DNA from: Hydrolagus colliei
Taxonomy: Eukaryota
Assembly (NCBI GenBank): GCA_035084275.1
Contig: CM068746.1
Coordinates: 29,574,001-29,638,000 of the forward strand
Length of the DNA stretch: 64,000 nucleotides
Reading direction: 5' to 3'
Shown: positions 7,138-63,825 of the stretch, piece by piece
Layout of the letters: each line of letters starts with the position of its first letter
How positions within the stretch are numbered: the stretch's first letter is position 1
The notes under the pieces: model-generated
Databases searched by the model: none
What the model was told of the DNA's origin: nothing
What the model saw: the letters and a program-made list of their open reading frames with translations, nothing else
Made by a program: the position numbers and the translations under genes

Positions 7138-7694
7138 CATGATGGACCCAAGGCCAGTCAAGTAGCTTCAGAAAGACTGTCAGACCATCTCAGACGGAGA
7201 GATGTGATAACAAGCAATATGATGGGAGTCAGGTGGTTAAGGCCCAGGGTCATATGCAAAGTCGGAATCCAATTTAAAACTAGTTGCTTATTCAGTTTTA
7301 GTGAGGGGCAAATAAGCAACTCTGCTCCTTTTTTCCTCTGTCTGCTCCTACGCATGCTTAATATAGAGTCAACAGATACACAGTCACTATACGTTTATAA
7401 AATTGAGGTGCTTTGAGAGGTCTTGATATAATAATGTTTAACTCTACAAAAAGCTAAATTGCCTTTCTAAAGATTGAGACAATGCTTCAGCTTCAAGGGG
7501 AAATTGGGAGTCACTAATGCAAGGCTACACTGCTGATGTTCCAATCCCTTTTGTAAGAACAGCAAGTGAGATACTGTACATAGAATCATAGGGCACAAAA
7601 GGAGGCTATTTGGCCCATCGAGTCAGTGCCGGCTCTTCAAAAAGAGCAATTCAATCCCACTTCCCAGCTCTCTCCCCATAACCGCACAACCAGT

Positions 7695-8686
7695 CGATAT
7701 CGACATATATGCAGATGGCAGCACCTCTACCTTTCCGCTTCCACCCTCGACTCCACGACTACTAGAGTTCTGACTGCATGTCTGTCCGGTATTGAGTCCT
7801 GGACAAGGGTCAACCTCCTCCAACTAAACATCAACAAGACGGAGACCATCCTGATTGGCTCGCGTCAGCGCCTCCACACCTCAGGCATTGGCAACATCAA
7901 CATTCAAGGCTGCTCTCTCCACCTCTTGAAGCCAGTCAGGAATTTCGGCGTCTTGTTCGACCCCGAACTGTCCTTCCCTCCAAACTCCGCGCCAGGACTG
8001 GTACAGCCTTCCATCACCTCCGCAACATTACCAGACTCCGCCACTACCTCACCCACCATGCTGCCGAAACACTCATCCACGCATTCATCACATCTAGGCT
8101 CGACTATGCGTACTCTCTCCTCGTCAGCCTTCCCAGCTCCTCCCTTCACAAGCTGCAGATTTTTCAGAACTCTGCAGCTCGTATATGTACTCTTCTGCAC
8201 TAGGCTCCGCGACCACATCACTCCCACCCTCGCCTATCTCCACTGGCTACCCATCTCCCAAAGGGTCGAATTGAAGATCTTCGTCCTCACTTTCAAGGCC
8301 ATTCATGGACTTGCCTCCGCCTATCTCTCCGACCTGCTGTCTTCCTATCAGCCTGCCCACCCCCTCCGTTCAACGGGCTCTGGCCTGCTCCACGTCCCCC
8401 GCCCAAACCGCCCTACCATCGATGGTCGGCTTTCAGCCTCTTTGCCCCCATTCTGGAACTCCATCCCGCAATCCCTTCGCCTCGCTTCCTCTCTTTTCTC
8501 CTTTAAGGCCGGTCTCAAGACCTTCCTCTTCCGTGCCTTCTGCTCTCCTCCTAACTCTCCCCTCTCCTATTCTCCTTCCCCCTACCCCAACGCCCCCATC
8601 AATCAGGTCCTGACCTAACTGTTCAGCACCTTGGGACGTCCTCCCGACGTGAAAGGCACTCTATAAATTTTATTTTGTTGTTGTTG
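7695..8686 (+). mobile_element. L2-type LINE 3' fragment (end of reverse-transcriptase ORF2, 3' stem-loop, (TTG)n tail)
   Basis: Frameshifted ORF2 motifs (degenerate YADD, LQLNINKTE, RDHITPTLAYLHWLPI, FKAGLKTFLF); tail gggacgtcctcccgacgtgaaaggcact...ttgttgttg. Confidence 0.9.
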
Positions 8687-9924: not shown

Positions 9925-10818
9925 TCCCTCAATTTGAACACAAACCAGAGCTGCCAACCTTCAAGGAAGATTTTCAGGAAGGTTGTAGTAATTTTTCAGG
10001 AAGGTTTGTTACATTTTCAGGAAGGATTTTGTTATTGCCTCTATCACTTAAGTATCAGCCAATAGCTAAGACAGTGCTCGACATTAACAGGCATCCAGGA
10101 CACCTTAATTTTGCGCATCCGCGATTTACATCCGTGGTTTAAATTTTCAAGTTTCACTCCTCCAAACAAGGGACTGCATTCATCTGCGTATTGGTGTGTA
10201 TTCATCCGCTGTGCGGTTCCCGCCTATCCAGCATCTTTACTACCCCACATGGTCTAGCTGCACTCGTGGATCTACAGATACTGTGTGTGTGCAAATAGCT
10301 AGCGAATAGTACTAGGACCCAGTTGCTATGTTGCAATCAACCAGCGACAACGCTTCTCTCTTAGGATTAAGGTAAATACAACGCTTCTCTCAGTAGTATT
10401 TCACTTTCTCTTCTCCATTAAACTGATTTCTTCCATCCTTCCCCTACTGAACATAGGTGGTGCAAGGGGGATTTAGCTTATATGAAATGGCAAAAAATCG
10501 GAAGTTATTTATCTGGGATCGGGAGGGCGGAAGGGCGCATGTAAAACCGGAAAGTTTCCGCAAAAATCAGGAGGGTTGGCAGCTCTGACAAAAACAGAGA
10601 GAGCTGGGAAAACTTAGCAGGTCAGGCAGCATCTATGGAGAAAGGAAAGTGAGTCAATGTTTCGGGTCCACGTCCAGTTCTGATGAATGGTCATGGACCC
10701 GAAATGTTCACTCACTTTCCATTCTCCATGCTGCCTGACCTGATGAGTTTTCCCAGCTCTCTGTTTTTGTTTCAGATTTCCAGCATGTGTAGTATTTTGT
10801 GTTTTTTTCCCTCAATTT
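9925..10818 (+). mobile_element. Penelope-like fold-back element with hammerhead-like core (interrupted by the hAT MITE)
   Basis: About 80-bp inverted arms at 10588-10670 and 10694-10770; CTGATGA...GAAA core at 10680-10704; 11-bp flanking direct repeat tccctcaattt at 9925-9935 and 10808-10818. Confidence 0.7.
9946..10587. mobile_element. hAT-type MITE
   Basis: TIRs CAGAGCTGCCAACC / GGTTGGCAGCTCTG; 8-bp TSD acacaaac / acaaaaac (7 of 8 match). Confidence 0.85.
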
Positions 10819-16796: not shown

Positions 16797-16909
16797 TACC
16801 TGAATTAACTTACAGTAACTGGTTATGACATGTTGTGGGAAGAAATATTTATAGAGTTATGCCACTGTAATTGAGTGTGCATGCCTGCCTTTGTTGGTAA
16901 AATACTCAC

Positions 16910-16993
16910 ATGCTGCTTGGAGTGGATCTTGTAGGTCGTCCAGGGTGGCTTTTCGAGGTGGTGATGCTGACCGGTGGCTTTCCTTGGGATGGG
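16910..16993 (-). CDS. Candidate alternative (cassette) exon of YAF2, 84 nt, frame-preserving
   Basis: Acceptor ctcattacttgcaccctttccccattag and donor CAT|gtgagt. In phase 2 after exon 2 it reads (R)PSQGKPPVSITTSKSHPGRPTRSTPSS with no stop. GC-rich island in an AT-rich intron. Confidence 0.55.
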
Positions 16994-18362
16994 CTAATGG
17001 GGAAAGGGTGCAAGTAATGAGACATAAGAAAGTATTTAAATAGCAGTACTATTTTTGCTGCCCAAAACCGACTCGTGTCAGAACTGTGTTGCCACCCATA
17101 AACATGCTAAATTAAACCAAATCTGACTAAGAGCATGACAGAGCTTGTCTGAAAACTGATGTGTTGCAACTTGGCATTTCCTTCCATGGTATGGAGATTC
17201 AATAGACAATACAAAATAAAAATCCTTCATTTGATTTTGCACTATATCACACTGAAATATCTCAAACTGCTTTTTTTTCTGGTAAGTATAATGACTATAT
17301 TTGTAAGCTAAATTGTGTTTATGTTTATCGTCACTTAAATTTTCAAACAAAATTTTAAAGGCAAGTGTTCTGAGTTGCATTGTAGATCATCAATGGTGCT
17401 CTAGAATTATGTTTGTTCAGAGTTTGGCCAATCTGGAGTTTTATCTTTTGGAATAGACAGTAAAATATTGTTTACCATATTCTTTTGCAAAATCATTTTA
17501 AAATGACAAATACAAAAATGAAAGATGTAAATGGCAGTGCAATTAAAAATAAATTAGGTGAATATAATCCAGTAACTGAAATTAACTCAACCTGTTCAAA
17601 AATTGTGCAATTAGATTGGAAAGGTCCCAAGTTCAAGCAAGTTACTCATCTCACTCAGGGCAGATTGATTCTTCTCTGCATTCCTACATTATTTTGTGGT
17701 CAGTTGGGTATCTGAAACCCATCATCATGCCTTCGAGTATTGAAACTAGAGTTCCAATGCATCCCACCTGTACATGGAATTTCCAGGTATGTTTATTGGA
17801 ATGGAATGTGCACTCTCTCTCTGGAGGGATACATCAAGGAGGGCAACAAATAAAAGAGTTCCTGTTTTTTATCTATGCCGTACTTAATAACTTGTTTTAG
17901 AAAGCATGCATCAGGATATTGGGCAAGAACAGGTTTGGCACTTTACTGCCATCTTCACGTTGATCTGTCGCCTTACACCAAAAAATGGTTGGGAAATACA
18001 CCACAAAGAGTGCCAATAGAACTAGAGCCCCTCACGAGTTATCATTGTGAAGAAAGATAGTACACAGAACTTTACTTCAGACTTGGCGCAAAGATTAGGG
18101 GTAGTTGTTGAACCAGGTGCAAAAGAGCCCCCATTTCTGATTCACAAACTTCGCTTCAAAAAAGCTTCTATTCATTTTAGATTTTTTGCGGGGGATGGGA
18201 AGAGAAGAGGGACACACAACATTACTTCTGTTGCAGTGATATAATAACAGTTAAGATACATAACAAAATTGGAAGATGGTATATATTTTTTCATGCATAT
18301 ATAAATGTTGTCAACTGGTCTGCCATCGTCAAGATTTGGTTGGGGATATACTTAGCTCCAAT

Positions 18363-22218: not shown

Positions 22219-22931
22219 CATAGCTGCCAACCTTTTTTTAATAAAAAAAAGTACTCCTGAAAGCTAAAAACAGTATTTTGTAGTAAAAAAAAGTATTTTC
22301 CCCAGAACCTACCGGTACTTAACGAAAACATTACAGCGAGAAAAAATGCCAAGTAAAATGCGACTTCAAAATCCCATGTGGCAAAAATTGCATTAAGAGG
22401 AAGGTCCCTATACTGCGTCTCCGTATATGAAAAAAATCATTCCCAGTAATGCTTTGCACCTAGCGCTAACATTTACAGTGTATTGTATTTGTTGCAGCTT
22501 CTGCTTCACTCTGTTATTGTTTGTTTGAAGGCCCACCTTCACAGATGCAAAACTGAAGGCAGGGAGAAGTTAGAGAGAAAGAGACTGAGACAGAGACAGA
22601 GTGAGATTGTGGCAGCCAGAAACTCAAACAGAGAGGAGAGAGAGAGACACAGAGAGAGTCAGAGAGAGAGAAAGAGAGAGAGCGTGACCGAGACAGACAG
22701 AGAGGGAAAGAGACACGGAAAGAGAGACAGAGAGACAGAGACACACAGAGAGAGAGAGAGAGACACACAGAGAGAGAGAGAGAGACAGAGAGAAGGAGAG
22801 ACAGACAGAGCATGGAATTTCCAAAATTCTGATTTTCCAAAAAACTTATTTTAACAAGAAAAATCGTACTGCCGTATTTACTTCAATTTATCGTACTAAA
22901 TACGGCAAAAACGTACTGGTTGGCAGCTCTG
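22219..22931. mobile_element. hAT-type MITE with internal (GA/GACA)n tract
   Basis: TIRs CATAGCTGCCAACC / GGTTGGCAGCTCTG, the same ends as 9946-10587 but a different interior; agctag on both flanks. Confidence 0.8.
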
Positions 22932-26145: not shown

Positions 26146-27685
26146 TTACCTTCAAAAAGCTCTCCATCCTTTAAACTAGAAACACATGATACTAAATGTA
26201 CCTTCCAACCAAAATTAGGCCAATGATGAGATAAACAGAACACATAAAATTAAAACTTTGTAACTGTCATGCTCAACTTTTAACTGTTCCATTAATTCCC
26301 ACTGGACAATTGTTGGACACACTAGGAATTGTGCAGACATTTTGTTGCATAACATGCACTTTGAAATGAAAAGTCTTTCAGTGCATAACATGTTAATGAC
26401 ATTTTAAACAGCGACCAAGGTTGCAAGTAGCTATACAAGTGGGCATCTCATTGTAGAGTTGTTCGATGTCTTGGAAGCAAAATAGACATTTGTGGATTTC
26501 AGGGAAGCAACAAAATAAACAAAATAACAAAAAAAATTAACCTAATTTGAATACATTTTGTAACTTAATGAAGCATCAATAAATGTTGGCTTAACTAGCT
26601 CCAAGATCAAGAAAAAATATAGGGTATTAATCTTATTATCTGGGCAGCCTTGTCTGGCCTTACTGACTAGTGAACTATCCAACTGTTCCATTCAATGGTC
26701 TTTTCTGCAAGTCATCAAATGCTGAAATTCAGACAAATGTTAGAAGCAAATGGCAGTGGGGCGAAATAATGATGCACCTTAATAGATATCAAATACAGTA
26801 AAAACACTGTCCTGATCAACAAAGATAAAATGAGTTTATTTCAACCTTTTGAGTAACATGGAGTGGTAGGACCAAAGCATTACAAGGCTATATTTTACAT
26901 CCATGTGACATTGACTAGTTATAATAAGCAGGGGAGCCTTTGCCCAATGACAAATAGCCATACAAACCCAGAAGACCACAGGTCCAATCACTATCTTGTA
27001 TTAGGACAGTACATTGCCACCAAGTGCAGTTAATCAGTGGAAGGGGGCTAACACAGAGGGACTGAGAGACTCACAATTCCTGTCCATTAAATCTTGCTGT
27101 GACTCACTTTTCCTTTCTCACTTTTTCCTTGCTGCCTGATCTGCTGGTTGTTCCCAGCTATCTGTTTTTTCCTACAGATTTCCAGCATCTGCAGTATTTT
27201 GCATTTTTGTTAAAGTTGGTCATGTTGCTCTTCGCAGATCAAATGTCGTGTGATGGCTGTTTCAGAATCGACACTTGAAGGGTGCAAAGGGAAAGGTACC
27301 CCTCAATACAATGTATTTTCTACAATCCATGTAAATGTATGAAGGTTTCAGCACGTTGGGACGTCCTCACGACATGAAAGGCGCTCTATAAAAGTGATTT
27401 TTGTTGTTGTTGCAAAGCAATCAGTATTTGCTCTACAACTAGAGTTAGAAAAAATTATTGCACCTGATTTTTTTCTCGAATCTTCTGTCCCTTTCCAAAA
27501 ATACACCAATTTCCATCATCAAGGTTGCAAATACCTATACAAGAAATGGCCAATCTTGACTCGAGACAACACCAAGTTTACATAAATTTTAATAAGACCA
27601 CCGCATGGGAGTCTTGAGCAACTGAAGTCATTCATTGTTGCTGGCAACCATAAAAATCAGATTTTGTTATTTTTCAGTTAGTTTA

Positions 27686-31538: not shown

Positions 31539-32175
31539 AACAACAACAACAAAATTACATTTATTTGAGAGCCTTTCACATCAGGGGTGATGTCCCAAGG
31601 CACTGAACAGTCAGGACCGGACTCGAACAAGGGAGAGGGGCAGGGTAGGGGGGAGGGGCGGGAGAGAGTTCAGAGGGCAGCAGAAGGCACGGTTGAACAG
31701 TAGGTGCTTGAGACCAGGCTTGAAGGAGGTGAGGAGGCAGCATGGCGAAGGGATCGTGGGATGGAGTTCCAGAGTGTGGGGGCAGTGAGGCTGAAAGCCC
31801 GTCTGCCGATGGTAGGGCGGGTCGGGCGGGGGACATGGAGCAGGCCGGAGCCCGCTGATTGGAGTGGGCGGTGAGGTTCATAGGGGGCAAGGCCATGAAT
31901 GGTCTTGAAGGTGAGGACGAGGATCTTGAATTCGATCCTCGGGGGATGGGGAACCAATAGAGCCAGAGAGAGTGAGAGTGATGTGGTTGCAGTGCTTGGT
32001 ACGGGTGAGAATATGAGCTGCAGAGTTCTGGATGATCTGCAGCTTGTGAAGGGAAGAACCAGGAAGGCCGATGAGGAGGGAATTTCCGTAGTCGTGCCTT
32101 GACGTGATGAATGAATGGACGAGGGGTTTGGGAGCCTGAGGGGTAAGGCAGTGGCAGACTCTGGCGATGTTGCGA
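31539..32175 (-). mobile_element. L2-type LINE 3' fragment
   Basis: HKLQIIQNSAA, RIEFKILVLTFKTIHGLAP and RRAFSLTAPTLWNSIP motifs; (CAA)n tail at 31539-31552. Confidence 0.9.
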
Positions 32176-32244
32176 TGCAACACAAAATATCAACCAGTAA
32201 AAGTTCACAAGACAATCAATAAGAAATTTTAATTTTACAATTAC

Positions 32245-32585
32245 TTCAAAGCCCTCCCTCCATACCTCTGTGGCCTGCAAAGCCCATATCACCTGCCCAC
32301 TCCCTCTGCTCAGCAGCCTGCTTCACGTCCAACCGCCCTACAATCAGCGGTTGGACTTTCCATTCAGCACCCCATTCTGTTTGCCTTGCTCCCTCCCTTG
32401 TCTCCTTCTAGGCACGTCTCAAGACCATTCTCTTTCATCACGCCTTCGGCAACTTCCTACTCTCCCTATCCTCAACGCTCACTGATTCCCACTCCCAACC
32501 ACTCGGGTCTAAATCCCTGACTGTGCAGTGGCTTGGGACATCCTCCCGACATGAAAGGCGTTATACAAATGTAATTTTGTATTGT
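32245..32585 (+). mobile_element. L2-type LINE 3' end
   Basis: Same 3' tail motif (cttgggacatcctcccgacatgaaaggcgttatacaaatgtaattttgt). Confidence 0.8.
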
Positions 32586-33691: not shown

Positions 33692-33862
33692 GAATCCTGT
33701 AGCTTAGTTGTTAGAGAACTTGCCTAGCAAACAAGAAGACCTGGGTTTGATTTCCAGGCAGCACAAAACATTGGGCACGTTTCCTTACTCCACACGGCAC
33801 AGTTTATCTAGCATTATTTAGGAACTCAGTTGTTAGTCGATTGGCGAATCACTTTTCTTGGC
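33692..33862 (+). mobile_element. SINE family A head (plus strand)
   Basis: gaatcctgtagcttagttgttagag...gacctgggtttgatttcc: decayed A and B boxes. Confidence 0.75.
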
Positions 33863-34644: not shown

Positions 34645-35400
34645 TGTGGTAAAGTCAGTCAGGAACCTAGGTATCCTGCTCGATCCTCAATGGTCTTTCC
34701 TCCCCTACATCCAAGCCATGACCCACTCTGCTATCTGTCATTCCGTAATATTGCCTAAATCTACCACTATCTCACCCCTCATGCACTGAAACTCATTCAT
34801 GCCTTTAACACATCCCGGCTTGACTATGCCAATACCCTCCCTTACCAATTCCTCCCTCCATAGGCTGCAGATAAACTAGAACACTGTGACCTGTGTCCTC
34901 TACCACTCCAAATTTCTTGACCCCCATCTCCCTCATCCTCGCCTGACTCCCTTGGCTCCCCAGCACCCAGAGGATTCAATGCAAGATCCTGGTCCTCACA
35001 TTCAAAGCCCTCCATGGCTTCGCCCCACCTTACCTCTGCGATCTCCTAACCACCCCCTACCAACCTGCCCGCCCCCTCCGCTCAGCAGGCTCCGGCCTGC
35101 TCCACGTCCCCCAACCCACCTACCCCACCATTGGCGGGAAAGCCTTCAGCCACTCTGCCCCCAACTTCTGGAACTCCATCACACAGTCCCTCCGCCTCGC
35201 CTCCTCCCTAGACTCCTTGAAGTCCCGCCTCAAGACCCTCCTCTTCGATGGTCCCATCGGTCACCCCAAACTCCCCCCTTTCCCTCCACCATCACTGAAC
35301 CCGATCCCAGCTCGGGTCTGAAACAATGACTTTCCAGCAAGTGGGACATTCTCCTGATGTCAAAGGCGCTATACAAGCATAATTTTGCTCTTGTTGTTGT
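34645..35400 (+). mobile_element. L2-type LINE 3' fragment
   Basis: VRNLGILLDP motif, homologous 3' region, tail ending ttgttgtt. Confidence 0.85.
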
Positions 35401-36196
35401 TTGAATCCCAAGAAGTAAAAAATTTATATCCCAGAAGAGTGGCAACCGGAATGCAGGAATATGACACAAAAACAAAACATTTTAAATGCTAAACATTTAA
35501 ACGATTATTTTGAGAAGGCTCCCAATTGCCTTAAGGCTATCACATCCACATTGATATAGGCTAGTTCTTACAGAATCAGAAAATACATGCACCTTTGCTT
35601 ACAAAAATTCTGACAGGTTCAAAGTATAAAAGTAATTCAGATTTCCTGATTTTCTGGTTTTGCAACACAAAAAGTAAAGTGCAAAAAAAAAGTCTTGTCG
35701 CTTTACAGCAAAATTCTAATCCCGTCCATTGTGTGCAATACTATAAATATTCATTGCATTTCCTCTCAAATCAATTGAAGATCAGCAGGTGAGATGGACA
35801 TCATTTGTGGTCCAGAGTAAGCTGCAACACTGCAGCCCTTGCAAACTTGCACAGGGAATTAATGAAAGTGGAACCACTTAAAATAGGAGACAGATCAAGT
35901 TTTTGTTCAATTGGTGTGAAGTCAGAGAGGACAAGTTGGGTCAAACATATCTGCTGAGACATACCTCAGGCATCCTGACTGTTTTATTGTCCTGCCATAA
36001 CACGGTCTGCAGCAAAGAAATAAGAGTAGAAAGAAAAAACAGGCAATATATCAAAAGTTAAATGAGGAAGAAAAGCATAAACAGATGGGGGGGGCGGGGG
36101 GGACGGACATATAGAAATGTAGTGCAAAACAATGAGAACAAAACATCAGTAGAACTCATTAGTGGTGTTGAGCTCCTGAAGATGACTTGTCTAATA

Positions 36197-36931
36197 AGGT
36201 AGAAGCCCGTTTATCCGTGACTCGATGCACCGGCACTTCCATATAACCGGTAGGCCAAAAAAAAATCCCCATTCGATAAACTGGAACTTATCCGGAACAA
36301 TAGCAGTGGAGCATTTGTAAATGCATACATAATAACATAATAACAGAATATTGCATTGGCACTCACCATCAAAACTAATCTCCTGCGCCCCCCGCCCCCG
36401 CTGGTAGATGCTGTGCTTGAAGCCATGCTGCTGCGGTTGAGGTTTACATTCCAACGACCCCTCCCAAAATGGAGCACGCCAAGCGGGCAAAAAAAACGGA
36501 GCGCGTATGACTTCATAGTCATACTAGCGGCAATCCGATAACGCTAGCCAATAACCCACATTGTCGTGCAGGTGCAGTATTTTGGTTTGCCGCTAGTAGT
36601 CTAGGGCTTCGGCTTGTAGCTAGTAAAGTCGCTCGACTTTAAAATTGCGCTGCCGCTTCTTTCACCCGCCTGACGTTCCCCCATTCAAAAAAGAATCGCT
36701 GGACTGCGAACCCCAATCAGTAAAGGTGAGAAGCACAAGACAGCAGCCCCAACAATAAGCATCAACACAATATTCTGCCACTATCTGCTATTACCGTGTA
36801 TATGGTATGTGTTAAAAGAACTTTAATTTTTTTGTAATGGGTTTTCGGCTGTGGGCCGCCCGAATATCCGGCAGGCGCTTTAACCGGCACTGGCCAGGTC
36901 CCGTGGATGCTGGATAAGCGGGCTTCTACTG
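36197..36931. mobile_element. MITE family B, long internal variant
   Basis: Same TIR family (GTAGAAGCCCGTTTATCCG ... GGATAAGCGGGCTTCTACTG|TA) with about 500 bp of CpG-rich interior. Confidence 0.85.
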
Positions 36932-38113
36932 TATATCACAATAGTAGGTGTGGTGCTCTTGTTTGTTCAGTTCCTGAGCCAGGAAGGTCCACAGTATTCC
37001 AGGGCATTACTGGTGAGGGCAATACCCAGCCCATTCGCAGGAATTGGAAGGGCAGACCAATCACTGGAGGCAGGGACTCTTCCCACTCAGCTACTGTTAA
37101 CCCTGCAAGCAAAAGCCCTAATGGGTAGGGTGGTCCTAGCTTTACAAGCAGCGGGAAGCTTGCCAGACAGTGCTCTCAATGGCAATAGATGTGGTTTTAG
37201 CTGATTATAACTCCAGATGTACCCCCAATGCACACTCTGCGAACACCTAGCCTTTACTCTTCCCACCCTGTGGCTAATCTTCAGAAAGTATTTTTTTTTA
37301 AAAAGCAATGATATCCTGTTTATACTGCAACCTAACTGTAAATAAAATGCATGGTCCCTTTTAATATAATATGACGATCATGATTGCTCATCTTTCAACT
37401 CACTAAAATTTTTTTAAAAAGCAACACATGATTTTCTGATCCTCTTGTACTACCATTCCACATTTGGGGTCATAATAGTAGAGTATATATTCATAATGGT
37501 AGAATAGTGCACAATTTAATCTAAGAAACTGTTGTAAAGCACAATTAAGCTCTAGTTACCATTCGTTACTATTCCAATCATCCAATGTGTATATTGGATC
37601 AGCAAGGCAACAACAGAACAAAGTCTTACTGTTTAGCAAGAGATGCAAGAATGCAATACTTGAAAATAAAAGATAAGATTTTTTTAAATGGTTGTTACAA
37701 ACAATAGTACAACATAACAGTAAAATTATGCTCCCCTCACTCTCCCATCCCATTCAACACCAAGACAAAATATTGAAATAGATGTGGTTCTCATTTGTAC
37801 AGACAAAATGTCATTCAGGTTTAGAATTCTTGCGAGGCTGCTTAGCCATCAACAAGCCAAATGTATTCAGTAACCTGTAATTGAAGTAAAAAGCACTTAT
37901 ACAGCAGACAAATCCGCACTAATCTGCAAAGCGATCATAAAAAATAAACCAAACCAAGCCTCCCCAGTACAATTTCTCCATGTGGTTTGGGGAATTATAT
38001 CAATCTTGCTGTTGAACCCCAAGTAGACAAAACTGGCAGTTTGTGCAGCTGATTATGGCCATTCCAATACAATATTACATTTTTACAATAGGAGATAATG
38101 TCCAATGAATATG

Positions 38114-38557
38114 CAGTAAAAGCCCCCTTATCCGGCACCCACGGGACCTGGCCAATGCCAGTTAAAGCGCCTGCCGGATATTCAGGCGGCCTGCAGCCAA
38201 ACACCCACAACAAAAAATTTTCAGTTCTTTTGACACACACCAGACTAAATAATAACAGATAATAACAGAATATTGTATTAGTACTTATTGTTAAAACTAC
38301 TCTCTTGCGCTTCTCACCTTTACTGATTGACGTTTACAGTCGAGCGATTCTTTTTTAAATGGAGGATGCCAAGTACTTAACAATAAGTACTAATACAATA
38401 TTCTGTTATTATGTTATTATTTATGCATTCACAAATGCTCCACTGCTATTGTTCCAGATAAATTTCAGTTTATCGAATGGGGACTTTTTTTGGGGGGAGT
38501 GCCAGTTTAATATGTAAGTGCCTCTTCATCAAGTCATGGATAAACAGGCTTCTTCTG
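38114..38557. mobile_element. MITE family B, internally deleted inverted relative of 36197-36931
   Basis: CAGTAAAAGCCCCCTTATCCGGCAC ... GGATAAACAGGCTTCTTCTG|TA; shares interior segments with 36197-36931 in reverse orientation. Confidence 0.85.
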
Positions 38558-40750: not shown

Positions 40751-41756
40751 CAGGTATCCTACCCCAACAACGGCTTCGTCAACCACGAAACTCATGCATT
40801 CAGTTTGCTAAATGCGACAACCCTTGCAAACCGCAATGCGTTTTGTGCATCTGTGATTTAAATCCGCCGGTTTAAATCTTTAAGTTTCACTCTTCCAAAC
40901 AAGGGACCGCATTCATCCGCGTATTGGTGTGTATTCCTCCGCGTTTCCCGCCTATCAGCATCTTTACTACTCTACGTGGTCTAGCTAAACTCATGGATCC
41001 ACTTACTCCCCCTATACTTGTAACATGAATTTACTGTCACTTCTCCGCAGCCTAGCTAGTAAGTTTCGGAGCATTGGCTGCCAGGTTCTGCATCCTCTCT
41101 CTCTGTGTGTAAGTGTATCTCTCTCTGACTCACCTTCTCTCTATTTCTCTTTTCTTACTCCTTCTCTTCTCTCCCCCCCACCCCCCCCTCCTCTCTCTCA
41201 CCTTCTCTCTCTGACTCACCTTCTCTTCCCCCCCACCCCCCTTCTCTCTCACCTTTTCTCTATTTCACCTTTTCTTCCCCCACACCCTCTCTCTGTGTCT
41301 GTCTGTATCGGTCAAACACCCTACTCAGCCCACCGTGTCACACATCACACCTTCTCCATTGATTTTTCTCTCTCTCTGTAGATCAGTCAGACAGCCCCCA
41401 CCAGCCTTCCGTGTCACACACACACCCCCCCCACACCCCCGCCCTCTCTCTGTGTAAGTCAGTCAGACAGCCTCTCGGATTGTTGTAGATCCTGGCAGCC
41501 AATGTGCCCAAACTTACTCCCCCTATCTCCATGTATGTTATAACTGTGTTTTTTTTGTGTTTAGTTTTACTAAACGCGAACTTATTTCCCCTATCCCCAT
41601 GTTTCGCATAGGGCCCTGCATTTTCTAATCGTGAAAAAGTGAATGTACTCTCCCTATCCCCATGTTTCCCATAGGGCCCTGTATTTTCCAACCGCGATTT
41701 TACTAACTACGGAGGTTTAAGGAATGTATCCCCCTGCGGTTGGGGAGGGATACCTG
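40751..41756. mobile_element. Tc1/pogo-type MITE with CT-rich interior
   Basis: TA|CAGGTATCCTACCCCAAC ... GTTGGGGAGGGATACCTG|TA. Confidence 0.85.
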
Positions 41757-42465: not shown

Positions 42466-43262
42466 ATAATAATAATCCTTGCATTTGATATTGCGCTTTT
42501 CACGTCTTCTTAGACTTCTCAAAGCACATCACAAAATACAACAACAACAAAATAACACTTATAGAGCGCCTTTCACGTCGGGAGGACGTTGCAAGGTGCT
42601 GAATAGTCAGACTGGACCCAAGCGAGGAAGAGGGGCCGGATGGAGAGGTAGTGGCGAGAGAGAGTTGGGAGGGGGGAGTGGGGGAGAGAGTTGGGAGGGC
42701 AGCAGAAGCCACGATCGAAGAGGAGGATCTTGTGACTGGCCTTGAAGGAGGCAAGGGACAAAGTGAGGCGAAGGGACTGTGGAATGGAGTTCCAGAGTGT
42801 GGAGGAAGAGAGGCTGAAAGCCCACCCGTTAACGGTAGGGCGGGTTGGGCAGGGGACATGGAGGAGACTGGAGCCCACTGAACGGAAGGGGTGGGCAGGT
42901 TCATAGGGATAGAGCAGGTCAGAGAGATAGGAGGGGGGAAAGGCCGTGAATGGCCTTTCAAAGTGAGGATGAGGATCTTGAATTCGAGCCTTGAAAGTGA
43001 AAACAAGGATCTTGAATTCAAATATACTGTAAAGTGAATTGACTGTATATTTGTGGGCGAAACATGGCAGCCAATCGTGCACTGACTGCAGTGTCCCACA
43101 AACAGTTGTGGATTGAGTGACCAAATTATTACAGTATTTTTTGAGGGATTACTTTCAGACATATGGAGTAAGGAAACTTGCCCAAGCTTTTGCCCTGCCT
43201 TGAATCAAACCCAGGTCTCCCGCATGCAAAACGACTGCTCTAACCACTGAGCTACAGGAATC
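42466..43262 (-). mobile_element. SINE family A, split by an L2 insertion
   Basis: Tail at 42466-42539, body and head at 43021-43262. Confidence 0.85.
42540..43020 (-). mobile_element. L2-type LINE 3' fragment inserted inside a SINE
   Basis: (CAA)n tail at 42540; EFKILILT and WAFSLSSSTLWNSIP motifs; flanked on both sides by colinear SINE sequence. Confidence 0.85.
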
Positions 43263-47870: not shown

Positions 47871-49103
47871 CTCACGCTCCATTTATAAAATTATTTTTCT
47901 ATACAGTACTGTACTTCCTGATGTTATTTACAAGTGTGCACTGATGCCAGGCATTGAAAAGAAGCAAAATTAAAATACAGTGAGCTTAATGACATGATCG
48001 CTGAAGCATCCCAGCCTAATGATTGAGTCTCTGATGCAAATTTGGCTTTCTTTGTTTGTGAGTCTCTCTCCCTCTTCTCCCACCTACCCCCACCCCCCTC
48101 ACTTACTCCCACCCCTCTCACCTACCCACCACCCCCCTACCCACTCATCCACACCTCAAGTTCAAACAAAATAACATTAATTGTAATTTCTGACCAATAT
48201 CAACATGAAGTCCAATAATACTTTATGTATGTATAATCCCAGGAAAAAATAATTCAAAAAACAGTCCATCCCAAAGTGTTATTTTGACAATGGGTCCCAA
48301 GTGATTTAGTTTGGTGGAGGGTTGAAGGAAACCATGATACATTTTGAATATTCAGCACTATTACGATTTTAACAAAAAACAAGTAAATGTGACATGCTCC
48401 TTTGTTTTATCTTATTGCAGCTTCAACTGATATAATTATGTGATAATGTTGCCCCGCTTCAGGTATGCTTTCTGTTTAAGCCACAGTAAGTCACAGCTCG
48501 CTCACCTGCCCACCCTCCAAGTGAAGGGATTGTTGTTTGAAGGCAGTAGCTCAGGTAGAAAATAGGAAATAAGATCATGACGTAAAAAGGAATCAATTCA
48601 ATGCATACAGACATTTACTAAAATGACTAGTCTGTTCGTGATCCTACATAAAAATTAACTTCAATTAGTATATTTTCTGGGAGCCCTTGAAATAATTACT
48701 ATATAATAATAATAATGTCCATTTTGAGCAGTTTGAGACTGTAACATCTTTTGAAATGCAACCTATTCATGACACTGTATTGTGGTTGGGTCAAATGACT
48801 TCCTTACCAGTGTCAAACATCAATAACCCCTACCGTCAATATCATAAAAAAGCCAAGTAAATATTACAAAACCAGTTTGGTTCAGAGACTTGTCTCCCTG
48901 GTTAGCTGGTTTTGAATCTGCAAAAATAAAAATGCAGATCAAATATCTGAAAGGGCGAATGGGATTTTTCAACACTATGAATAAAAACTGCACTGTAGAA
49001 AAAAAACTCCAAAATTTCCCTCTTTATAAACCATAGCCCTCAACACTAATTCACATGATGCAAAATGAAATGCAATATATTGAGAGGAAGTGCAAAGACT
49101 CAC

Positions 49104-49229
49104 CGTGTTGATGTGCCCTTCCTGACATCACACATACTGCATTTGAAAGCCTCTGCGCTGTTCCTGAATGTGCAAACACTACAGTCCCAGTATCCTTCGT
49201 CTGGTGAAGGCTTCGGCTGCCTTTTGGGT
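49104..49229 (-). CDS. YAF2: YAF2 coding exon 2, RanBP2-type zinc finger
   Basis: aaacag|A CCC AAA...ACA CG|gtgag; 126 nt; translates [43 protein letters not shown] (W-x-C-x2-C-x3-N-x6-C-x2-C). Phase is consistent with exon 1. Confidence 0.97.
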
Positions 49230-49551
49230 CTGTTTTTGGACAACAAAAGGATTTTTTTTCATTTTCTTTTTTGGGAGAAAACCCCCCCCACCGCCTGATC
49301 ACATAGAGGAGAGTGTGTGTGTGGGGGGGGGGGGGGGGGGGGGCTGGGGTCCTTTATTTTTTTTGTAGCATCTATTGAATGTTTACTCAATAGTAAGGAG
49401 GGGGAGGGAGGAGGAGGGGGGGGGGGGGTTATTTTTTATTTAAAAGAGAAGCTTCTTTCGGTTTATGACCCCCCCCACTCCCCCCTCTCTCTCTCTCCTC
49501 TCCCCCTCCTCCCCCCCCACCGCCCCCTCTCTCCTCCTTCCATCTCAGATT

Positions 49552-49764: not shown

Positions 49765-49960
49765 AGCGGTAAGTCCCTTTTTTTATTATAAAATATCTTA
49801 TTATTAGGATTAAAATCACAAACCCGTCCGAATGGTTCAGGGCTCCTCTGCTAGCGCCTGGATCCCAGCTGTCCGGTGACTCACGTCACGTGGCCAATCG
49901 GGGCCAACCAGCGCCGCCCTCGCGGCTGTGAACCCCCAGCACAAGGCGCTGAGCAGCCGA
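49765..49960 (-). promoter_or_regulatory. YAF2 5'UTR and CpG-rich core promoter with overlapping AP-1/CRE-like/E-box/CCAAT motifs
   Basis: TGACTCA 49877-49883, ACGTCA and CACGTG 49883-49892, CCAAT 49894-49898, all about 115-135 nt upstream of the ATG. CpG-rich. Confidence 0.75.
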
Positions 49961-50720
49961 CACATGGGGGGGGGGGGGGGGAGATTGGGTGGGGAGAGAC
50001 ATGGGCGGGGAGAGACATGGGCGGGGGTGGGGAGAGACATGGGCGGGGGGGGGGGGGGGGGAGACTGGGGGAGGGAGAGAGACATGGGCGGGGAGAGACA
50101 TGGGCGGGGGGGGGAGAGGGAGAGAGACATGGGCGGGGGGGGGAGAGGGAGAGAGACATGGGCGGGGGGGGGGGGGGAGAGAGACATGGGCGGGGGGGGG
50201 GAGAGAGACATGGGCGGGGGGGGGGGGAGAGAGACATGGGCGGGGGGGGGGGGAGAGAGACATGGGCGGGGGGGGGGGAGAGAGACATGGGCGGTGGGGG
50301 GGGGGAGAGAGACATGGGCGGGGGGGGGGGGGGGAGAGAGACATGGGCGGGGGGGGAGGGAGAGAGACATGGGCGGGGGGGGAGGGAGAGAGACATGGGC
50401 GGGGGGGAGGGAGAGAGACATGGGCGGGGGGGGAGACATGGGCGGGGGGGGGAAGGGGAGACTGGGGGGGAGAGACTGGGTGGGAGGAGGGGAGGAGACA
50501 TTGGGGGTAGAGACTGGGGGAGACATGGGGAGAGACTGGGGGAGGAATGGGGGGAAGAGACATGGTGGGGAGAGAGAGACATTGAGGGGGAGAAACATTG
50601 GGGGGAGACATTGGGGAGGAGAGACTGGGTGGGGGGGAATGAGGCACGGGGCAGGTTTGGTGGGGGAAGATACATGGGAATCGGGGGGGGGGGGGGGGCA
50701 GTGAGTCATGGGGGGGAATC
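49960..50720. repeat. G-rich minisatellite (GAGAGACATGGGCG(G)n)
   Basis: About 18 tandem copies of acatgggcg followed by G-runs, decaying rightwards. Confidence 0.95.
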
Positions 50721-52259
50721 AGGGGGGGCAGTGAGTCATGTGAATCTGGGAGAGAGAGAAAGAGGTGGGAAAGAGAGGGGAGAAATATGGAGGGAAGGGG
50801 GCAGTGGGGACCTGAGGTGGAAAGAGTAATGGGGGGAGGAGAGACTTGGGGAGTGAGATATGGAGGGGGCGAGGGGCGAGAACAGGGGGGGGTGGGAGAG
50901 AAACATATGGTTTAGAGAGATGGGGTGGGCGAGACATGGGGAGGTATGGGGGTTGTGGGAGGAGACGAGTGGATGAGAAGAGAGACATGGGGGACAGAGA
51001 GGGAGGAGAAGATCAGGGTGAGAGAGGAGAGGGGGCAAAGACTCCCTATGCATTTGCTCCTGGTGGGGGCAACTGCATTGGGGGGGGGGGGGAATGAGAC
51101 GTCGAATGCACGGGGAGAGGAAGTATATTCATGGTGGGAAGGGAGTGATGCGTGGGGTGGGGGGAGAGGAGGGGGTAAAGTTGGAGCAAATGATCCCCAT
51201 GTGTTTGCCCCTTGTTATGGGGAGGCATAAGAGAGGAGTGGGCAAACAACAAAATTACATTTATAGAACGCCTTTCACATCAGGAGGACTTCCCAAGGTG
51301 TTGACATGGCAAAGGCATGGTTTGGAGGGGGGGGGCAGAGGGCACAAAGACAGGGAGTAAACACTCTTCCCCCATGTGTTTGCCCCCCTTCCTCTCAGTG
51401 TAGGAGCAGAGGCCACACACTGGGAAGGGAGCAAAGGGGACGAATGTATGCGGGAAGAGAGAGGGGGGGGGGGGGGGGGGGGGTTTAGGCAGGCACTGTG
51501 CAGTGTAGATGTGGCTGACATTTGGGTGGGAAGAGGCAGAGAGTTGGGGGGAGTCAGTCACTGCAGTGGAGATGTGGCGAACGCATGGCGACAGGAAGAC
51601 ATTGTTCGCGGAGTGGACGTGGTTGACGTCGGAAAGGGCGGAAGCAGGAGAGACGAGAGGACGATTACCCAGAGGGGACGGGCAGACACATGGGACTGAG
51701 AGAGAGAGAGAGACTGGGAGGTGTTTGAATGGAGGAGCTGCAGAAGCAACTACCGCCAGCGTTGGGAGGATATTGCACAGGAGGCGGGGAGATTGTTTTG
51801 CATTCAATGGACGCGTTGCCTCTTCCGCCACCAATCTCAGACACACACACAGGGAGAGAAAAGGGAAACCGACTCCAGGATGAGGAGTTGCGCGGTTTCA
51901 GCGTTTGAATTGAATTGCTCGCTCATTTTCCTGCTTTACTCTCCCCCCCCCCCCACCCCCCACCACTACCCTCTCAGTGCATCATCAAGTCAGTCAAGGC
52001 AACGGCCGCTGATGGTAACCAATAGTGATACAGTAATGAATTGGGCCGGCGGTCACCTCGCTGAATTGAAGCGTTGAGGAAATGCAATGAATCGCACGTT
52101 GTTTGTTCCGGAATCCAACATAATCCAACATCTGGATAAAATAAATGACAATTTGCAAATCCATTTTTTTCCCAATGCAAATAGCAGTTGAAACGCTCTG
52201 AGACGCTGGGAGGGCGCGATATAAACCCGACTTGTTGTTACACTGCACTGGGGATGGAA

Positions 52260-52553
52260 GTAATAATAATAATAATCCTTGCATTTGATATCGCGCTTTT
52301 CACGTCTTCTGGCCGTCTCGAAGCGCTTCACAGAACACGCTGTAATGTGAATTGACTATATATTTATGAGTGCAGCCAATTGTCCACAGCAGGTTTCCAC
52401 AAACACCGGTGGATTGAAATGACCGATTTTTTTTTCTTTGGGGATTATCAGGTGTGTGGAGTGAGGAAAACTTGCCTACGGTTTTGCACTGCCGGGAATG
52501 GAACCCAGGTCTCTTGCTTGCAAGGCAAGTGCTCTAACCAGAACTACAGGACT
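52260..52553 (-). mobile_element. tRNA-derived SINE (family A, CpG-retaining)
   Basis: (TAA)n tail on the plus strand, body and head present. Confidence 0.85.
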
Positions 52554-55214
52554 TCGTTCAGAAGAAATTAACTTCTTGTTTTGTTCAGGTGGATATTTTC
52601 AGCTCCCGTGTTTTTCAAAGCTGTTAGGATGTTTCTGGAATGTTCTGGCCACAAATCTCCTGATTTTTTAAAAGAAAATTACTTCATAACTATATTGCAA
52701 AACATTGCTGTGTGCACATTACCTACCACATTCTCTGTAAAATAGTCACTACATTTTTCATAAACTTGTGTGAACTGAGTTTCAATGTGATAAGGTGCTT
52801 AGATGATAAGACCTTTCTCTTTGACCGTGCCTACAATGACACCTCCTCCACCCCCATTCTCCTGGAAGAGGGGTGCTATATAAATGCAAGTTGTTGTTGC
52901 TAAAATCAAACATTACAAAGAAGTCACAACAAAGAAATGTCACCCAGCTCAACCAGTCCATGCAACGTTTATAATCCACACAAATCCTCACCCATTCCTT
53001 CCTTCTTCCCATATCCTTTACTCCCATCTCCCTGCTGTGAAGGTTCAGCTTCCTCTTGAACACATCTATAAAGTGCTCCGAGACACTACCCCTCATGAAG
53101 GGCGCGATATTGTATTTTATATTATCTGATTCAACCGAGCAAGGATTCACCCAAGACTGGTCTCAAGTCACAAAATTCTTCCAAAACATAATGTGCTTTC
53201 CTCCCTTTATTATTCTCCCACACAAGTTTTTCGCACCTCAGGAAATGCTCTCCTGGAGTCTGGAAGCTATTGTTGGTGAGTTTGCCTATTCAGGTAATCA
53301 CAACCAGCATCAACATGCACAAGCTAATAATAATAGAATAATATCAATCAATATTATATTTATTTATATTTCACGACAAGAGGACGTCCCAAGGCGCTGA
53401 ACAGTTAGGTAGGGAACAGAGTGTGGGGGGAGGGGTGTCCGGGTTAGGGGTAATGAGAGTAGGAAAATTGTATATTTGTGGGCAAAACTTGGTAGCCAAA
53501 TTGCGCACAACAGTGTCCCACAAACAGTCACGGAAGTGAGGCCAGGGGAGAAAGGTGGAAAAGAGGGTAAGGTGAGTGGGAGGGAAAGGTGAGGGGGGGT
53601 GTTAAAATCAGGTAGGTAGGGGGAAAAGGGGGGGAAGGGAAGGAGGGAAGAAGAAGGGTGGGAAATATGGAGGAGGCACAGGAATAATCAGAAGCAGAAA
53701 CCATGTATTTATCTGCGAGTCATTGTGGGTCTCACACCACCATACAATCTCAGTAGACACTGAAAATTAGACCTGTAAAACTCAAAATGCATTTACTCAA
53801 GTTATATAAAAAAATTGTAAAGTCGATTTTTTTCTCCCTTAAAGTACCACTGATGTGTGGACTCAAATAATTCACTTGCAACTTGAATGAAAATAAGACA
53901 TGGGTAAAGTAATAAATGTGAAATTTCTAGTTTGGGTTTTCCTGTTGTGCAAACACAAATATCGGCCTATTCATCCCACCTCATACCCTTGCTGCCATTC
54001 TATCAGGTCACAATACTTGTACTTTGTATCAATTAATCATTGCTTGTATCAATTCCACTTAAGTGTGACTGGCTTCGTTTGTGAAAAATACATAGTATAC
54101 AGTACTGGTGAAAAAAATAATTTGAGTTTCATGAACAAAAAGTATAAATTGTTGAGTAATAATCCTAGGAGATACACTGAAACACAGAACATGAAATCCT
54201 GTAAAATGCCACTATTGTGAGGAAGTGTTCAGGATGAAAGCTAATTGTTTCTACCTATCAGAAATCAGCTTCTTTATGAAAACTGGATATAGGATCAGAA
54301 AGCAAACTGTTGGAAAGAATGCACAAAGCTGCAGGTTAATAAGCTATTAGGGAGAGTCAGCAGGTGGGTGGCAGCTGCAAGAACAAATTGAAATCCCAGT
54401 ATTAATTTGATACATTTTATAAATATACAGATAAGCTGGCATTGCTCAAATTTCCAATATAAAACAGCTTTTTTCAATATCCTTCTTCTGTAATGCCATT
54501 TTACACAGGAATAAACATTACAAACTGCATATAGTGACACCACTTTATGGATGAACTACATTGTATTAATTCATTCAATAAATCAATTTAGAAGATTGAG
54601 ATAAAGGATGATGAAGTAATCGCATTTATTGTCTTCAAATATTGCATTTCTGTCTCCACTGTTTCCTACGTCTTTGCCATTTTAAATAGCTTTCCAATAA
54701 TTAAAGCATATTTCTCTCTTTTCTAATCACTTCACATTGGTTTTGAAACATCAAATATTGTCTGCAGCAGTTGCCAGTTTGAAGGATAGATGGATGGATT
54801 AAAGCAAAAATAACTCATCACAAGAAATTGATGGACAAACAAAGTGCTTGTTGTTAATCCTCCTGTGATAACATTCGGGATATTTCACACTAAATTGAGA
54901 AATTAATTGAAAAACATAGTATAAACACAGAAGTCACTGGGAATATGCAGCATCATCCATGGAGAAAGGAAAATTAGTTAACGTTTCAGGACTGGAGAAT
55001 GTTGGAAGGGAGCAGATTTTTAAGGATAAGCAAAGAAGGGGGCTGGAAAGAATGATTGAAAGAAACATTTTTAAATGGAGGATAGATGATGAATTTAGAG
55101 CTGTTCATGGTGGCAATGGCAATTGGGGGATTGTAGGACGAATAGATGCATCTAACAACCAGAGGATGTGTTGATAGTTATAGAAGGGGGCGGGGGCAAA
55201 GCTGAGAGGTGTGT

Positions 55215-57621: not shown

Positions 57622-58048
57622 ATAATAATACTTGAATTTGATATAGCGCTTTTCCTGTCTTCTAGACGTCGCAAAGCGCTTCACAGAATATACTGTACAG
57701 TGAACAGACTGTATATTTGTGAGTGAAATGCGGCAACCAATTGCGTACACCAATGTCCCACAAACAGTCGTGAATTGAATCAGCGCCTTGAGACGTCCTC
57801 CCAACATGAAAGGCGCTATAGAAATTTAATTTTGTTGTTGATGAACGACCAAATTATTATTTTTTGGGAAGGATTGTCATCCCCGGAAATGCAATCTGCC
57901 AATCAACTAACAACTGGGTTCCTACTTACTGCTTTTTAAACAGAGGTGTGTGGAGTAAGGAAACTTGCCCAAAATATCACCCTGCTGGGAATCTAACCCA
58001 GGTCTCTTGCTTATGAAGCGAGTGCTCAAACCACTGAGCTATAGGAAC
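57622..58048 (-). mobile_element. SINE family A with a 60-bp L2 tail inserted
   Basis: Full SINE; plus-strand L2 tail at 57781-57841. Confidence 0.85.
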
Positions 58049-58674: not shown

Positions 58675-58815
58675 CTAGTCACTCAGCTCTTCTTCATCAC
58701 TGAAATAGGCACTCTTCTTTATCCGGGGGCGCCTTGATAGGCCGGATGCTGATGATTCCCCAGTGTCCTCAGCTGTCTGTTTACGTCTAACTTCCTCCTC
58801 CTCAATCTTTGCTTG
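58675..58815 (-). CDS. ZCRB1: ZCRB1 last coding exon
   Basis: ttaatcag|CAA GCA AAG...AGT GAC TAG; [46 protein letters not shown]. The C-terminus matches the known ...[10 protein letters not shown] end. Confidence 0.96.
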
Positions 58816-61706: not shown

Positions 61707-62901
61707 CCGTATATCTCCGCGTATAAGGCGCACTTTGTTTCAGGTCGGAAGATCTCGAAAGTGGGGGGTGCGCCCTATACGCAGATACAAGCAATTTTGA
61801 GCCTCGGAGATACAGTAAACAGGAGGGGCGGCCGGCGCGCTGTCAGCCGGGGTTTGGTCAGTGTCCGGCGGGGGTTGGGAGGAGCGGGTGACGGGGCTTC
61901 GGCCTCGGCCGCCCGGGCAGCGGCAGCAGCAGCGGACTCCAGTGCTGTGCTTACCTTCTGCCGAACCCAGTCTGCCTCCCTCACTCCCTGCCGCTCTCCC
62001 TCCCTCCCTCCCTCCCTCCCTGCCTGCGTGCCTGCCTGCCTCTCTCCCTCCCAGGCTGCCGACCTGCCTCTCTCCCTCTCTCTCTCCCAGGCTGCCTCTC
62101 TCCCTCTCTCTCCCGGGGTGCCGACCTGCCTCTTTCCCTCTCTCTCTCCCAGGCTGCCAGCCTGCCAGCCTGCCTCTCTCCCTCTCTCCCTCCCAGGCTG
62201 CCTCTCTCCCTCTCTCTCTCCCGGGCTGCCGACCTGCCTCTCTCCCTCTCTCTCTCCCGGGCTGCCGACCTGCCTCTCTCCCTCTCTCTCTCTCCCACGC
62301 TGCTGGCCTGCCTCTCTCCCTCTCTCTCTCCCAGGCTGCCTCTCTCCCTCTCTCTCCCGGGGTGCCGACCTGCCTCTTTCCCTCTCTCTCTCCCAGGCTG
62401 CCAGCCTGCCAGCCTGCCTCTCTCCCTCTCTCCCTCCCAGGCTGCCTCTCTCCCTCTCTCTCTCCCGGGCTGCCGACCTGCCTCTCTCCCTCTCTCTCTC
62501 CCGGGCTGCCGACCTGCCTCTCTCCCTCTCTCTCTCTCCCACGCTGCTGGCCTGCCTCTCTCCCTCTCTCTCCCGGGCTGCCGGCCTGCCGCTCTCCGTC
62601 TCTCTCTCCCGGGCTGCCGCTCTTCCTCTCTCTCTCCCGGGCTGCCGACCTGCCGCTCTCCCTCCCTCCCTCCCTCCCTCCCGGGCTGCCGGCCTGCCGC
62701 TCTCCCTCTCTCTCTCCCGGGCTGCCGACCTGCCGCTCTCCCTCCCTGCCTGCGTGCCTGCCTCTCTCCCTACCTACCTGTCTCTCCTCCCTTCTGCCGG
62801 CAATATCATTGAGAATGCTTCCGTTTTTTTTCACCAAGAAAAGGTCAAAAACGGGGGGTGCGCCTTATACGCGGGTGCGCCTTATACGCGGAGATATACG
62901 G
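61707..62901. mobile_element. Young Tc2/pogo-type non-autonomous DNA transposon in a ZCRB1 intron
   Basis: Perfect 27-bp TIRs CCGTATATCTCCGCGTATAAGGCGCAC, TA on both sides, CpGs intact; interior is a GC-rich segment plus a complex minisatellite. Confidence 0.92.
61975..62790. repeat. Complex minisatellite (about 30-35-bp units, with a higher-order duplication)
   Basis: Repeats of gggctgccgacctgcctctctccctctctctctccc; a block of about 240 bp recurs (about 62085-62325 and 62330-62570). Confidence 0.9.
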
Positions 62902-63592: not shown

Positions 63593-63713
63593 CTGCATTT
63601 AAATTGAAACACATTAGGTGGCAATGTTGGTTAATATATTCAAAGGATCCCAAATTGTTATCTGGTTGCAAAACCTGATGAAATTAGAATGCAGATTTTT
63701 TTTCTAAACCCAC

Positions 63714-63825
63714 TTGCTTGTTGTGAAGTGCTCTTGTGCAGTTGTATGCTGATTCTCTGTCCAGAAAAAGTACAAATGCCACACCTTTACTTTTCCTAGA
63801 TTCCTTGTCCCTCAGCACCGTTACT
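63714..63825 (-). CDS. ZCRB1: ZCRB1 internal exon (RRM)
   Basis: tttgcag|A GTA ACG...AAG CAA|gtgggt; 112 nt; [37 protein letters not shown], containing the RNP1 motif KGVAFVLF. Matches ZCRB1. Confidence 0.96.

Follow-up and report, generated by a model that had tools for sequence, protein, structure and literature searches.

A fold-back insertion with a damaged minimal hammerhead motif in a YAF2 intron of Hydrolagus colliei, probably the fossil 3′ end of a Penelope-like element

In the 64-kb stretch of Hydrolagus colliei DNA analysed here (the window), an inverted repeat that carries a minimal hammerhead motif is read as the fossil extreme 3′ end, i.e., the pseudo-LTR (pLTR) and tail, of an endonuclease-containing (EN+) Penelope-like element (PLE), with a probability of about 0.85. 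The whole fold-back, arms and tail together, is one insertion event that was later cut by a MITE. Its true ends are at 9936 and 10807, beyond the coordinates first given for it (10588..10800) in an earlier note on this DNA. The features on which the analysis draws are as follows.

9925..9935, no strand: left copy of the target-site duplication, 11 bp, the longest exact word common to both flanks
9936..9945, minus: tip of the left arm, severed by the MITE, which prolongs the match to the right arm
9946..10587, no strand: MITE of 642 bp, a later insertion in the left arm, with a 14-bp perfect terminal inverted repeat
10588..10670, minus: left arm, an inverted, 5′-truncated, tail-less element end (arm alignment)
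10671..10693, plus: loop and inversion junction, 23 nt
10676..10712, plus: minimal type I hammerhead motif without helix III (descriptor scans, with the consensus from the supplement of PMC4209133, Figs S3 and S7)
10694..10773, plus: portion of the right arm paired with the left arm (fold and arm alignment)
10774..10807, plus: 3′ tail of 34 nt, on the right arm only and also in the copy at 27100
10808..10818, no strand: right copy of the target-site duplication, an exact match to 9925-9935
27100..27209, plus: second insertion of the family, 3′ part and tail (81% over 86 nt, E 4e-18 within the window)
54950..54996, minus: third, more diverged insertion (the 54990 copy), in which the 5′ half of the core (10/11 to 10673-10683) directly abuts the 3′ half
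49764; 49103-49231; 35970-36008; 16909-16995, minus: YAF2 exons, the last three found by tblastn with 14 named cartilaginous-fish YAF2 proteins

The earlier note had described inverted arms of about 80 bp around a 23-nt loop, and exactly such arms (10588-10670 and 10694-10773) enclose the loop at 10671-10693. Aligned with one another, they match at 73 of 87 columns, the others being 6 substitutions and 8 columns with gaps, and the hairpin that they form has a folding energy of −133 kcal/mol (z −15.9), with none of 200 shuffles as stable. Because an exact 11-bp word stands at both outer ends, the fold-back is a single insertion that was interrupted later; a shared word of at least 11 bases was found in 37 of 19,822 random pairs of 30-mers set 880 bp apart. 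In the region common to all copies, the arms differ at 4 of 63 aligned bases, as against 17-25% between them and the other two insertions, which indicates that the arms arose together. Of the hammerhead, the left arm has just the 3′ half (C11.1, GAAA, C15.2, A16.2, U17 and G1.1). We considered whether the arms are unequal simply because the MITE cut the left one; however, the duplication lies just 10 nt past the MITE, so the tail was one-sided from the outset. We also rejected the reading of the fold-back as a MITE in its own right, given its unequal arms, its 11-bp duplication and the dispersed one-armed copies.

The interrupting MITE has an 8-bp duplication, the left copy of which (9938-9945) is 7/8 identical to 10588-10595, and which leads us to presume that the MITE is hAT-like. 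Its internal part matches 40841-41002 at 84.5%, and similar termini occur at 22219 and 22931. As a separate observation, the arm/tail boundary of the element (10765-10776, and 27165-27192 in the second copy) has a pyrimidine run followed by CAG, which is 3′ splice site-like, although this is a resemblance only. PLEs carry introns near the pLTR.

Three structural traits of EN+ PLEs are found at the locus: an inverted, 5′-truncated copy adjoining the 5′ end (the left arm, i.e., 9936-10670 minus the MITE), a tail in the range of 30-40 nt at a single end (34 nt) and a short, exact target-site duplication (11 bp). The duplication and the one-sided tail had both been overlooked, and they make the link to PLEs, already drawn in the earlier note, stronger than first argued. 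Direct tandem pLTRs around an ORF are not seen, and in the vicinity of the copies the end is never directly repeated; truncated PLE copies are generally without them, so the PLE origin stands. Head-to-head arms, a one-sided tail of 30-40 nt and a duplication constitute the general architecture of PLE insertions as outlined in PMC8557442, and tails of this length are described in PMC8557442, PMC3846280 and PMC11167929. PLEs have been reported in cartilaginous fishes. Judged by its insertion structure, the family most likely belongs to the PLEs. A similar repeat may be common in shark genomes, where it would follow a GIY-YIG ORF.

A coding sequence was sought among 383 stop-free frames of at least 55 aa, of which 58 low-complexity frames were dropped and 325 scanned with Pfam. 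No PLE reverse transcriptase (RT) or GIY-YIG domain was found in these 325 frames, and the sole match above the curated cutoff was an RRM exon; this negative is a weak one, since the same scan also missed obvious LINE fragments and responds poorly to decayed ORFs. At the fold-back, an RT/GIY-YIG ORF is not expected, because the copy is truncated to about 140 nt. The proposal of a non-autonomous family was overstated: the 5′ ends of the copies differ and two share the 3′ end, for which 5′-truncated copies of an autonomous PLE would be the simpler account.

The hammerhead motif quoted in the earlier note is present as stated at 10676-10712. Its 5′ strand of helix I (10676-10679) is followed by CTGATGA (10680-10686), an extra A (10687), helix II (10688-10700), GAAA (10701-10704), positions 15.2, 16.2, 16.1 and 17 (10705-10708) and the 3′ strand of helix I (10709-10712). 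The CUGANGA box, the extra base and the GAAANNUH box thus stand in type I order (10680-10687 and 10701-10708), and the CUGAUGA-A and GAAA-N-N-U-U boxes are undamaged in this right-arm copy. The damage is at positions 10.1 (10688), 15.2 (10705) and 1.1 (10709). In helix II, four pairs form and the closing pair G10.1-C11.1 does not, with a U at 10.1 facing C. C11.1 is present in both arms, and G10.1 in none of the window's copies; we infer G10.1 for the family from the published consensus. In helix I, three outer pairs form and the closing pair U2.1-C1.1 does not, where 3-7 contiguous bp are required; the G1.1 of the left arm would restore this closing pair.

Comparison of the copies sorts the family-level features from those of the fold-back copy. 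At 15.2/16.2 the right arm reads U/G, the left arm C/A and the 54990 copy C/G, i.e., the right arm retains G16.2, the left arm C15.2 and the 54990 copy both, and the two arms are complementary at this palindrome. In the two arms, CpG decay has struck the palindrome on opposite strands. The idea that a palindromic stretch replaces stem III is supported for the family, with C15.2-G16.2 intact in the 54990 copy, and not for the fold-back copy; the GUU cleavage triplet is likewise supported at the family level. An ancestral helix I of AGUU/AACU, in contrast, had been read from a single copy and was overstated, as positions 1.1 and 2.1 vary among the copies: at 1.1, the left arm and the 27100 copy have G, the 54990 copy A and the right arm C, and at 2.1 the right arm has U and the 54990 copy C. 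Closing pairs of C-G, U-G and U-A would be about equally parsimonious, and no compensatory changes are demonstrable with four partial copies.

With the closing pairs of both helix II and helix I broken, the fold-back copy is disabled, as the earlier note had supposed; its attribution to CpG decay does not fit, since only the change at 15.2 is a CpG transition, whereas the descriptor-breaking lesions at 10.1 and 1.1 are not. In the isolated motif, the pairing probability is 0.05 for helix II and 0.001 for helix I, and inside the fold-back it falls to 0.000, including that of helix II, in agreement with the suggestion that the hairpin sequesters the core. When the motif was repaired with G10.1 and the left-arm base at 1.1, the pairing probabilities were 0.88 for helix II and 0.71 for helix I, and the strict descriptor was passed. 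Based on the two broken closing pairs, the burial in the hairpin and the antisense orientation in the YAF2 intron, the fold-back ribozyme is very probably dead.

A descriptor fitted to the fold-back copy matched this site alone in the window and matched in 3 of 1500 dinucleotide-shuffled windows. The published RNAmotif descriptor gave no match in the 64-kb window with zero mispairs (8 of 1500 shuffles match), and with one mispair allowed per helix it found only 10680 (59 of 1500 shuffles match). A descriptor demanding a perfect outer helix II pair missed the locus, which revealed the lesion at 10.1. The motif by itself is therefore moderately significant, at 0.2-4% per window, and only suggestive, so that the PLE case rests on the surrounding anatomy. 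The proposed check against Rfam, with E values of up to 5-10 admitted, returned no hammerhead family for the whole window or for two sub-stretches, and the Rfam miRNA matches at the hairpin, far below gathering scores, reflect the hairpin only. A 47-codon open frame spans the motif on the right arm and needs a 4-nt deletion specific to that arm; two word-index protein searches found no homologue of it, and there were no matches in the HMMER library. Stray host DNA was also sought in bacterial and archaeal genomes by two exact-pattern scans, which gave no loci. These searches for outside relatives were expected to be empty, the collections being protein-only or prokaryotic.

A third relative had been claimed at about 27100-27210; there is indeed a similar copy at 27100-27209, but it has no catalytic core. 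Its similarity begins near position 17/1.1, at most about 4 nt from where cleavage is predicted, and its target-site duplication is a 5-bp candidate only. The related 12-mer reported at 54976-54987 (minus) is present. Matches of at least 10/11 to the 11-mer 10673-10683 occur at just 2 of 127,978 window positions, the query itself included. The 54990 copy apparently lost helix II via a deletion of about 19 nt between two similar words of 4-5 nt; alternatively, an ungapped alignment with a decayed helix II strand may apply. In the roughly 230 nt upstream of this core, inspection by eye in three frames found no recognisable endonuclease end, and the pyrimidine-rich part upstream matches nothing else in the window convincingly. 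There is no intact hammerhead core anywhere in the 64-kb window.

The copies might instead belong to a distinct non-autonomous element with fixed ends that is mobilised in trans, either a non-LTR retrozyme or a SINE-like PLE derivative. Every copy found is indeed short and non-coding, and non-LTR retrozymes derived from PLE pLTRs are described in vertebrates, including the sole chondrichthyan sampled (10.64898/2026.07.22.740005). However, there are no tandem units, the 5′ ends of the three insertions are all different, the tail and the inverted arm are ordinary products of PLE integration (PMC8557442, PMC3846280), and most minimal hammerheads in genomes are ascribed to truncated PLEs (PMC4209133); we regard this origin as quite unlikely. 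It is very unlikely that the hammerhead-like string arose by chance, whether in a MITE-like fold-back or in a LINE or SINE 3′ end that had been inverted by twin priming. LINE twin priming also gives an inversion and a duplication, the fold-back copy fits the motif only with two mispairs, the lax descriptor matches 59 of 1500 shuffles and Rfam reports no hammerhead. Against this, LINE twin-priming arms are mostly adjacent segments, whereas the arms of the fold-back duplicate the same segment; where the ribozyme needs them, the palindrome and the helix I pair are restored in other copies; unequal arms and an 11-bp duplication are not those of a MITE; and there is no poly(A) or microsatellite end.

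Another possibility concerns the present role of the locus rather than its origin, namely that the 78-bp hairpin was co-opted in YAF2 pre-mRNA as an editing substrate, splicing modulator or small-RNA precursor. The hairpin lies in a YAF2 intron, the transcribed strand also folds (−126 kcal/mol, 78 bp) and alternative YAF2 exons are nearby, but the mismatches and indels of the arms look neutral, with no compensation, and the Rfam miRNA matches are far under gathering scores; co-option is very unlikely.

On the PLE reading, the element-encoded endonuclease would nick an AT-rich target, and reverse transcription would begin at the 3′ end of the element and halt about 10 nt past the hammerhead, yielding the right arm, with the inverted arm made in the same event. 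Either a second cDNA would be primed by the opposite nick at an inner start site lying 34 nt inside the end and would be joined to the first at a 5-nt microhomology, or the cDNA would snap back on the same 5-nt palindrome and copy itself. The junction sits within the ribozyme's own sequence. A 5-nt word present twice (10666-10670 and 10672-10676) is complementary to 10694-10698, and this doubled word is the complement of the helix II loop and 3′ strand. Second-strand priming is favoured by the final five bases in the left duplication, which agree with the complement of the tail's first 5 at 4 of 5 positions, the remaining one being a G-T wobble, and by the Anolis PLE, for which reverse transcription starts at two sites bounding the tail and AT-rich targets are nicked on both strands (PMC11167929). 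Snap-back is favoured by the self-priming at junction palindromes that has been proposed for rotifer Penelopes (PMC3846280). We place the two routes at about even odds.

The parent motif may have acted as a slow dimer ribozyme, with palindromic pairing of 15.1-16.1 instead of helix III and a cut after GUU. By analogy with published minimal hammerheads, which cleave slowly and only as multimers (PMC4209133), dimer cleavage is the most likely mode in the parent element. For the Anolis hammerhead, the element's protein is needed for cleavage, and cleavage is dispensable in vitro (PMC11167929); among Xenopus retrozyme dimers, one of nine was cleaved (10.64898/2026.07.22.740005). In the fold-back copy, the closing pairs of both helices would have decayed since then, leaving it inert. 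The start of the 27100 copy near the predicted cleavage site and the junction inside the ribozyme would be consistent with fossils that record ribozyme-cut RNA as the in vivo template; this is an unlikely reading, which draws on one copy (27100) whose boundary is fixed only to about 4 nt. If it is true, and if 5′ ends pile up at the cleavage site genome-wide, PLE hammerheads would set insertion length in vivo.

The closest published counterparts are the minimal hammerheads that metazoan PLEs carry in their pseudo-LTRs (Cervera and de la Pena 2014, PMC4209133), and the hammerhead consensus comprises CUGANGAH, an extra base before helix II and GAAAN-N-UH (supplement). With these the motif shares the type I order without helix III, the CUGANGAH box and extra base, U16.1-H17, a 4-bp helix I and, in the family, the C15.2-G16.2 palindrome, as well as the occurrence of dispersed single and opposite-strand copies; unlike them, the fold-back copy lacks the G10.1-C11.1 pair and the closing pair of helix I. 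The species in Fig. S3 and Table S1 of that study include no named cartilaginous fish.

The insertion structure is that of Adineta Pen2/Pen2a, in which an inverted pLTR, a duplication of 9-10 bp, a 31-bp tail on one arm and a junction palindrome are described (PMC3846280), and of Fig. 2 in PMC8557442: both share with our locus head-to-head arms, a tail on one arm, a duplication of about 10 bp and a junction palindrome. In contrast to Pen2/Pen2a, the fold-back has about 140 nt and no ORF; its clade may be Penelope/Poseidon or Neptune. The Anolis Poseidon element PAc resembles it in the hammerhead near the 3′ end, the tail, for which two RT start sites can account, and the AT-rich target (PMC11167929). 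As described there, the ORF start of PAc overlaps the ribozyme and cleavage needs the protein, whereas the 47-codon frame of the fold-back has no homologue found. Non-LTR retrozymes (10.64898/2026.07.22.740005) are, like the fold-back, short, non-coding and PLE-related, with a type I hammerhead, and are reported in a chondrichthyan. However, they are defined by tandem units, each with a complete hammerhead, whereas the fold-back was inserted once, in inverted form, and its only motif is damaged. Two or more tandem complete hammerheads were not found here: the 64 kb contain one motif, and none that passes the strict descriptor.

The locus is most likely an ordinary dead PLE fragment with a damaged hammerhead of the sort already known from PLEs. 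As a single dead copy it carries little weight, since minimal hammerheads are already abundant in PLE fragments, by the thousand in those of fish, coelacanth and frog genomes (PMC4209133). No description of the family was found in the shark/Callorhinchus Penelope or hammerhead literature; Repbase and Dfam may well list it, and the supplementary tables of 10.64898/2026.07.22.740005, on chondrichthyan retrozymes, may already include it. It adds a family from a cartilaginous fish, of which the literature found gives no description. In addition, the fold-back is a compact, datable record of one PLE integration, with its duplication, tail-less inverted arm and tailed direct arm. Tallied genome-wide, records of this kind could tell two-site priming apart from self-priming and could test whether ribozyme cleavage shapes 5′ ends.

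The host gene is YAF2. The exon at 16909-16995 is the last in the window, the C-terminal exons lying outside, and the fold-back is in the next intron, where its hammerhead runs antisense to the pre-mRNA. Being intronic and on the opposite strand, the full motif is carried by YAF2 pre-mRNA only in antisense. For the zinc-finger exon, 16 of 120 listed proteins are 98% identical, and the 15 named ones, all from cartilaginous fishes, differ by one residue; the 16909 exon encodes 28 residues identical to the Callorhinchus milii protein. The YAF2 exons in the window include two small ones known from cartilaginous-fish isoforms. Upstream of YAF2 on the same strand is ZCRB1 (63713-63824 and from 63589 downward, minus; best PDB match ZCRB1, E 1e-14), and a further ZCRB1 exon is presumed near 58700 (minus) from a single short motif.

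Several other repeats were observed in the window. The tRNA-like heads of a multi-copy SINE-like repeat are at 52484-52553, 57981-58045, 33700-33757 and 43194-43258, the best two scoring 45 and 43 bits against Rfam tRNA (repeat families D13, D15 and D17-D19). LINE 3′ fragments ending in (TTG)n, which we take to be L2/CR1-like, occur at 7584-8686, 31540-32320, 34720-35390, 42540-43200 and elsewhere; the 344-codon open frame in the fragment 7584-8618 has no Pfam match. Long inverted repeats at 36255-36936 and 38109-38494, 1.2-2 kb apart and with a nested 49-bp inverted repeat at 38246-38423, are probably a non-autonomous DNA transposon. G-rich and pyrimidine-rich minisatellites are found at 49960-50750 and 61970-62800, the first of them just upstream of YAF2 exon 1.
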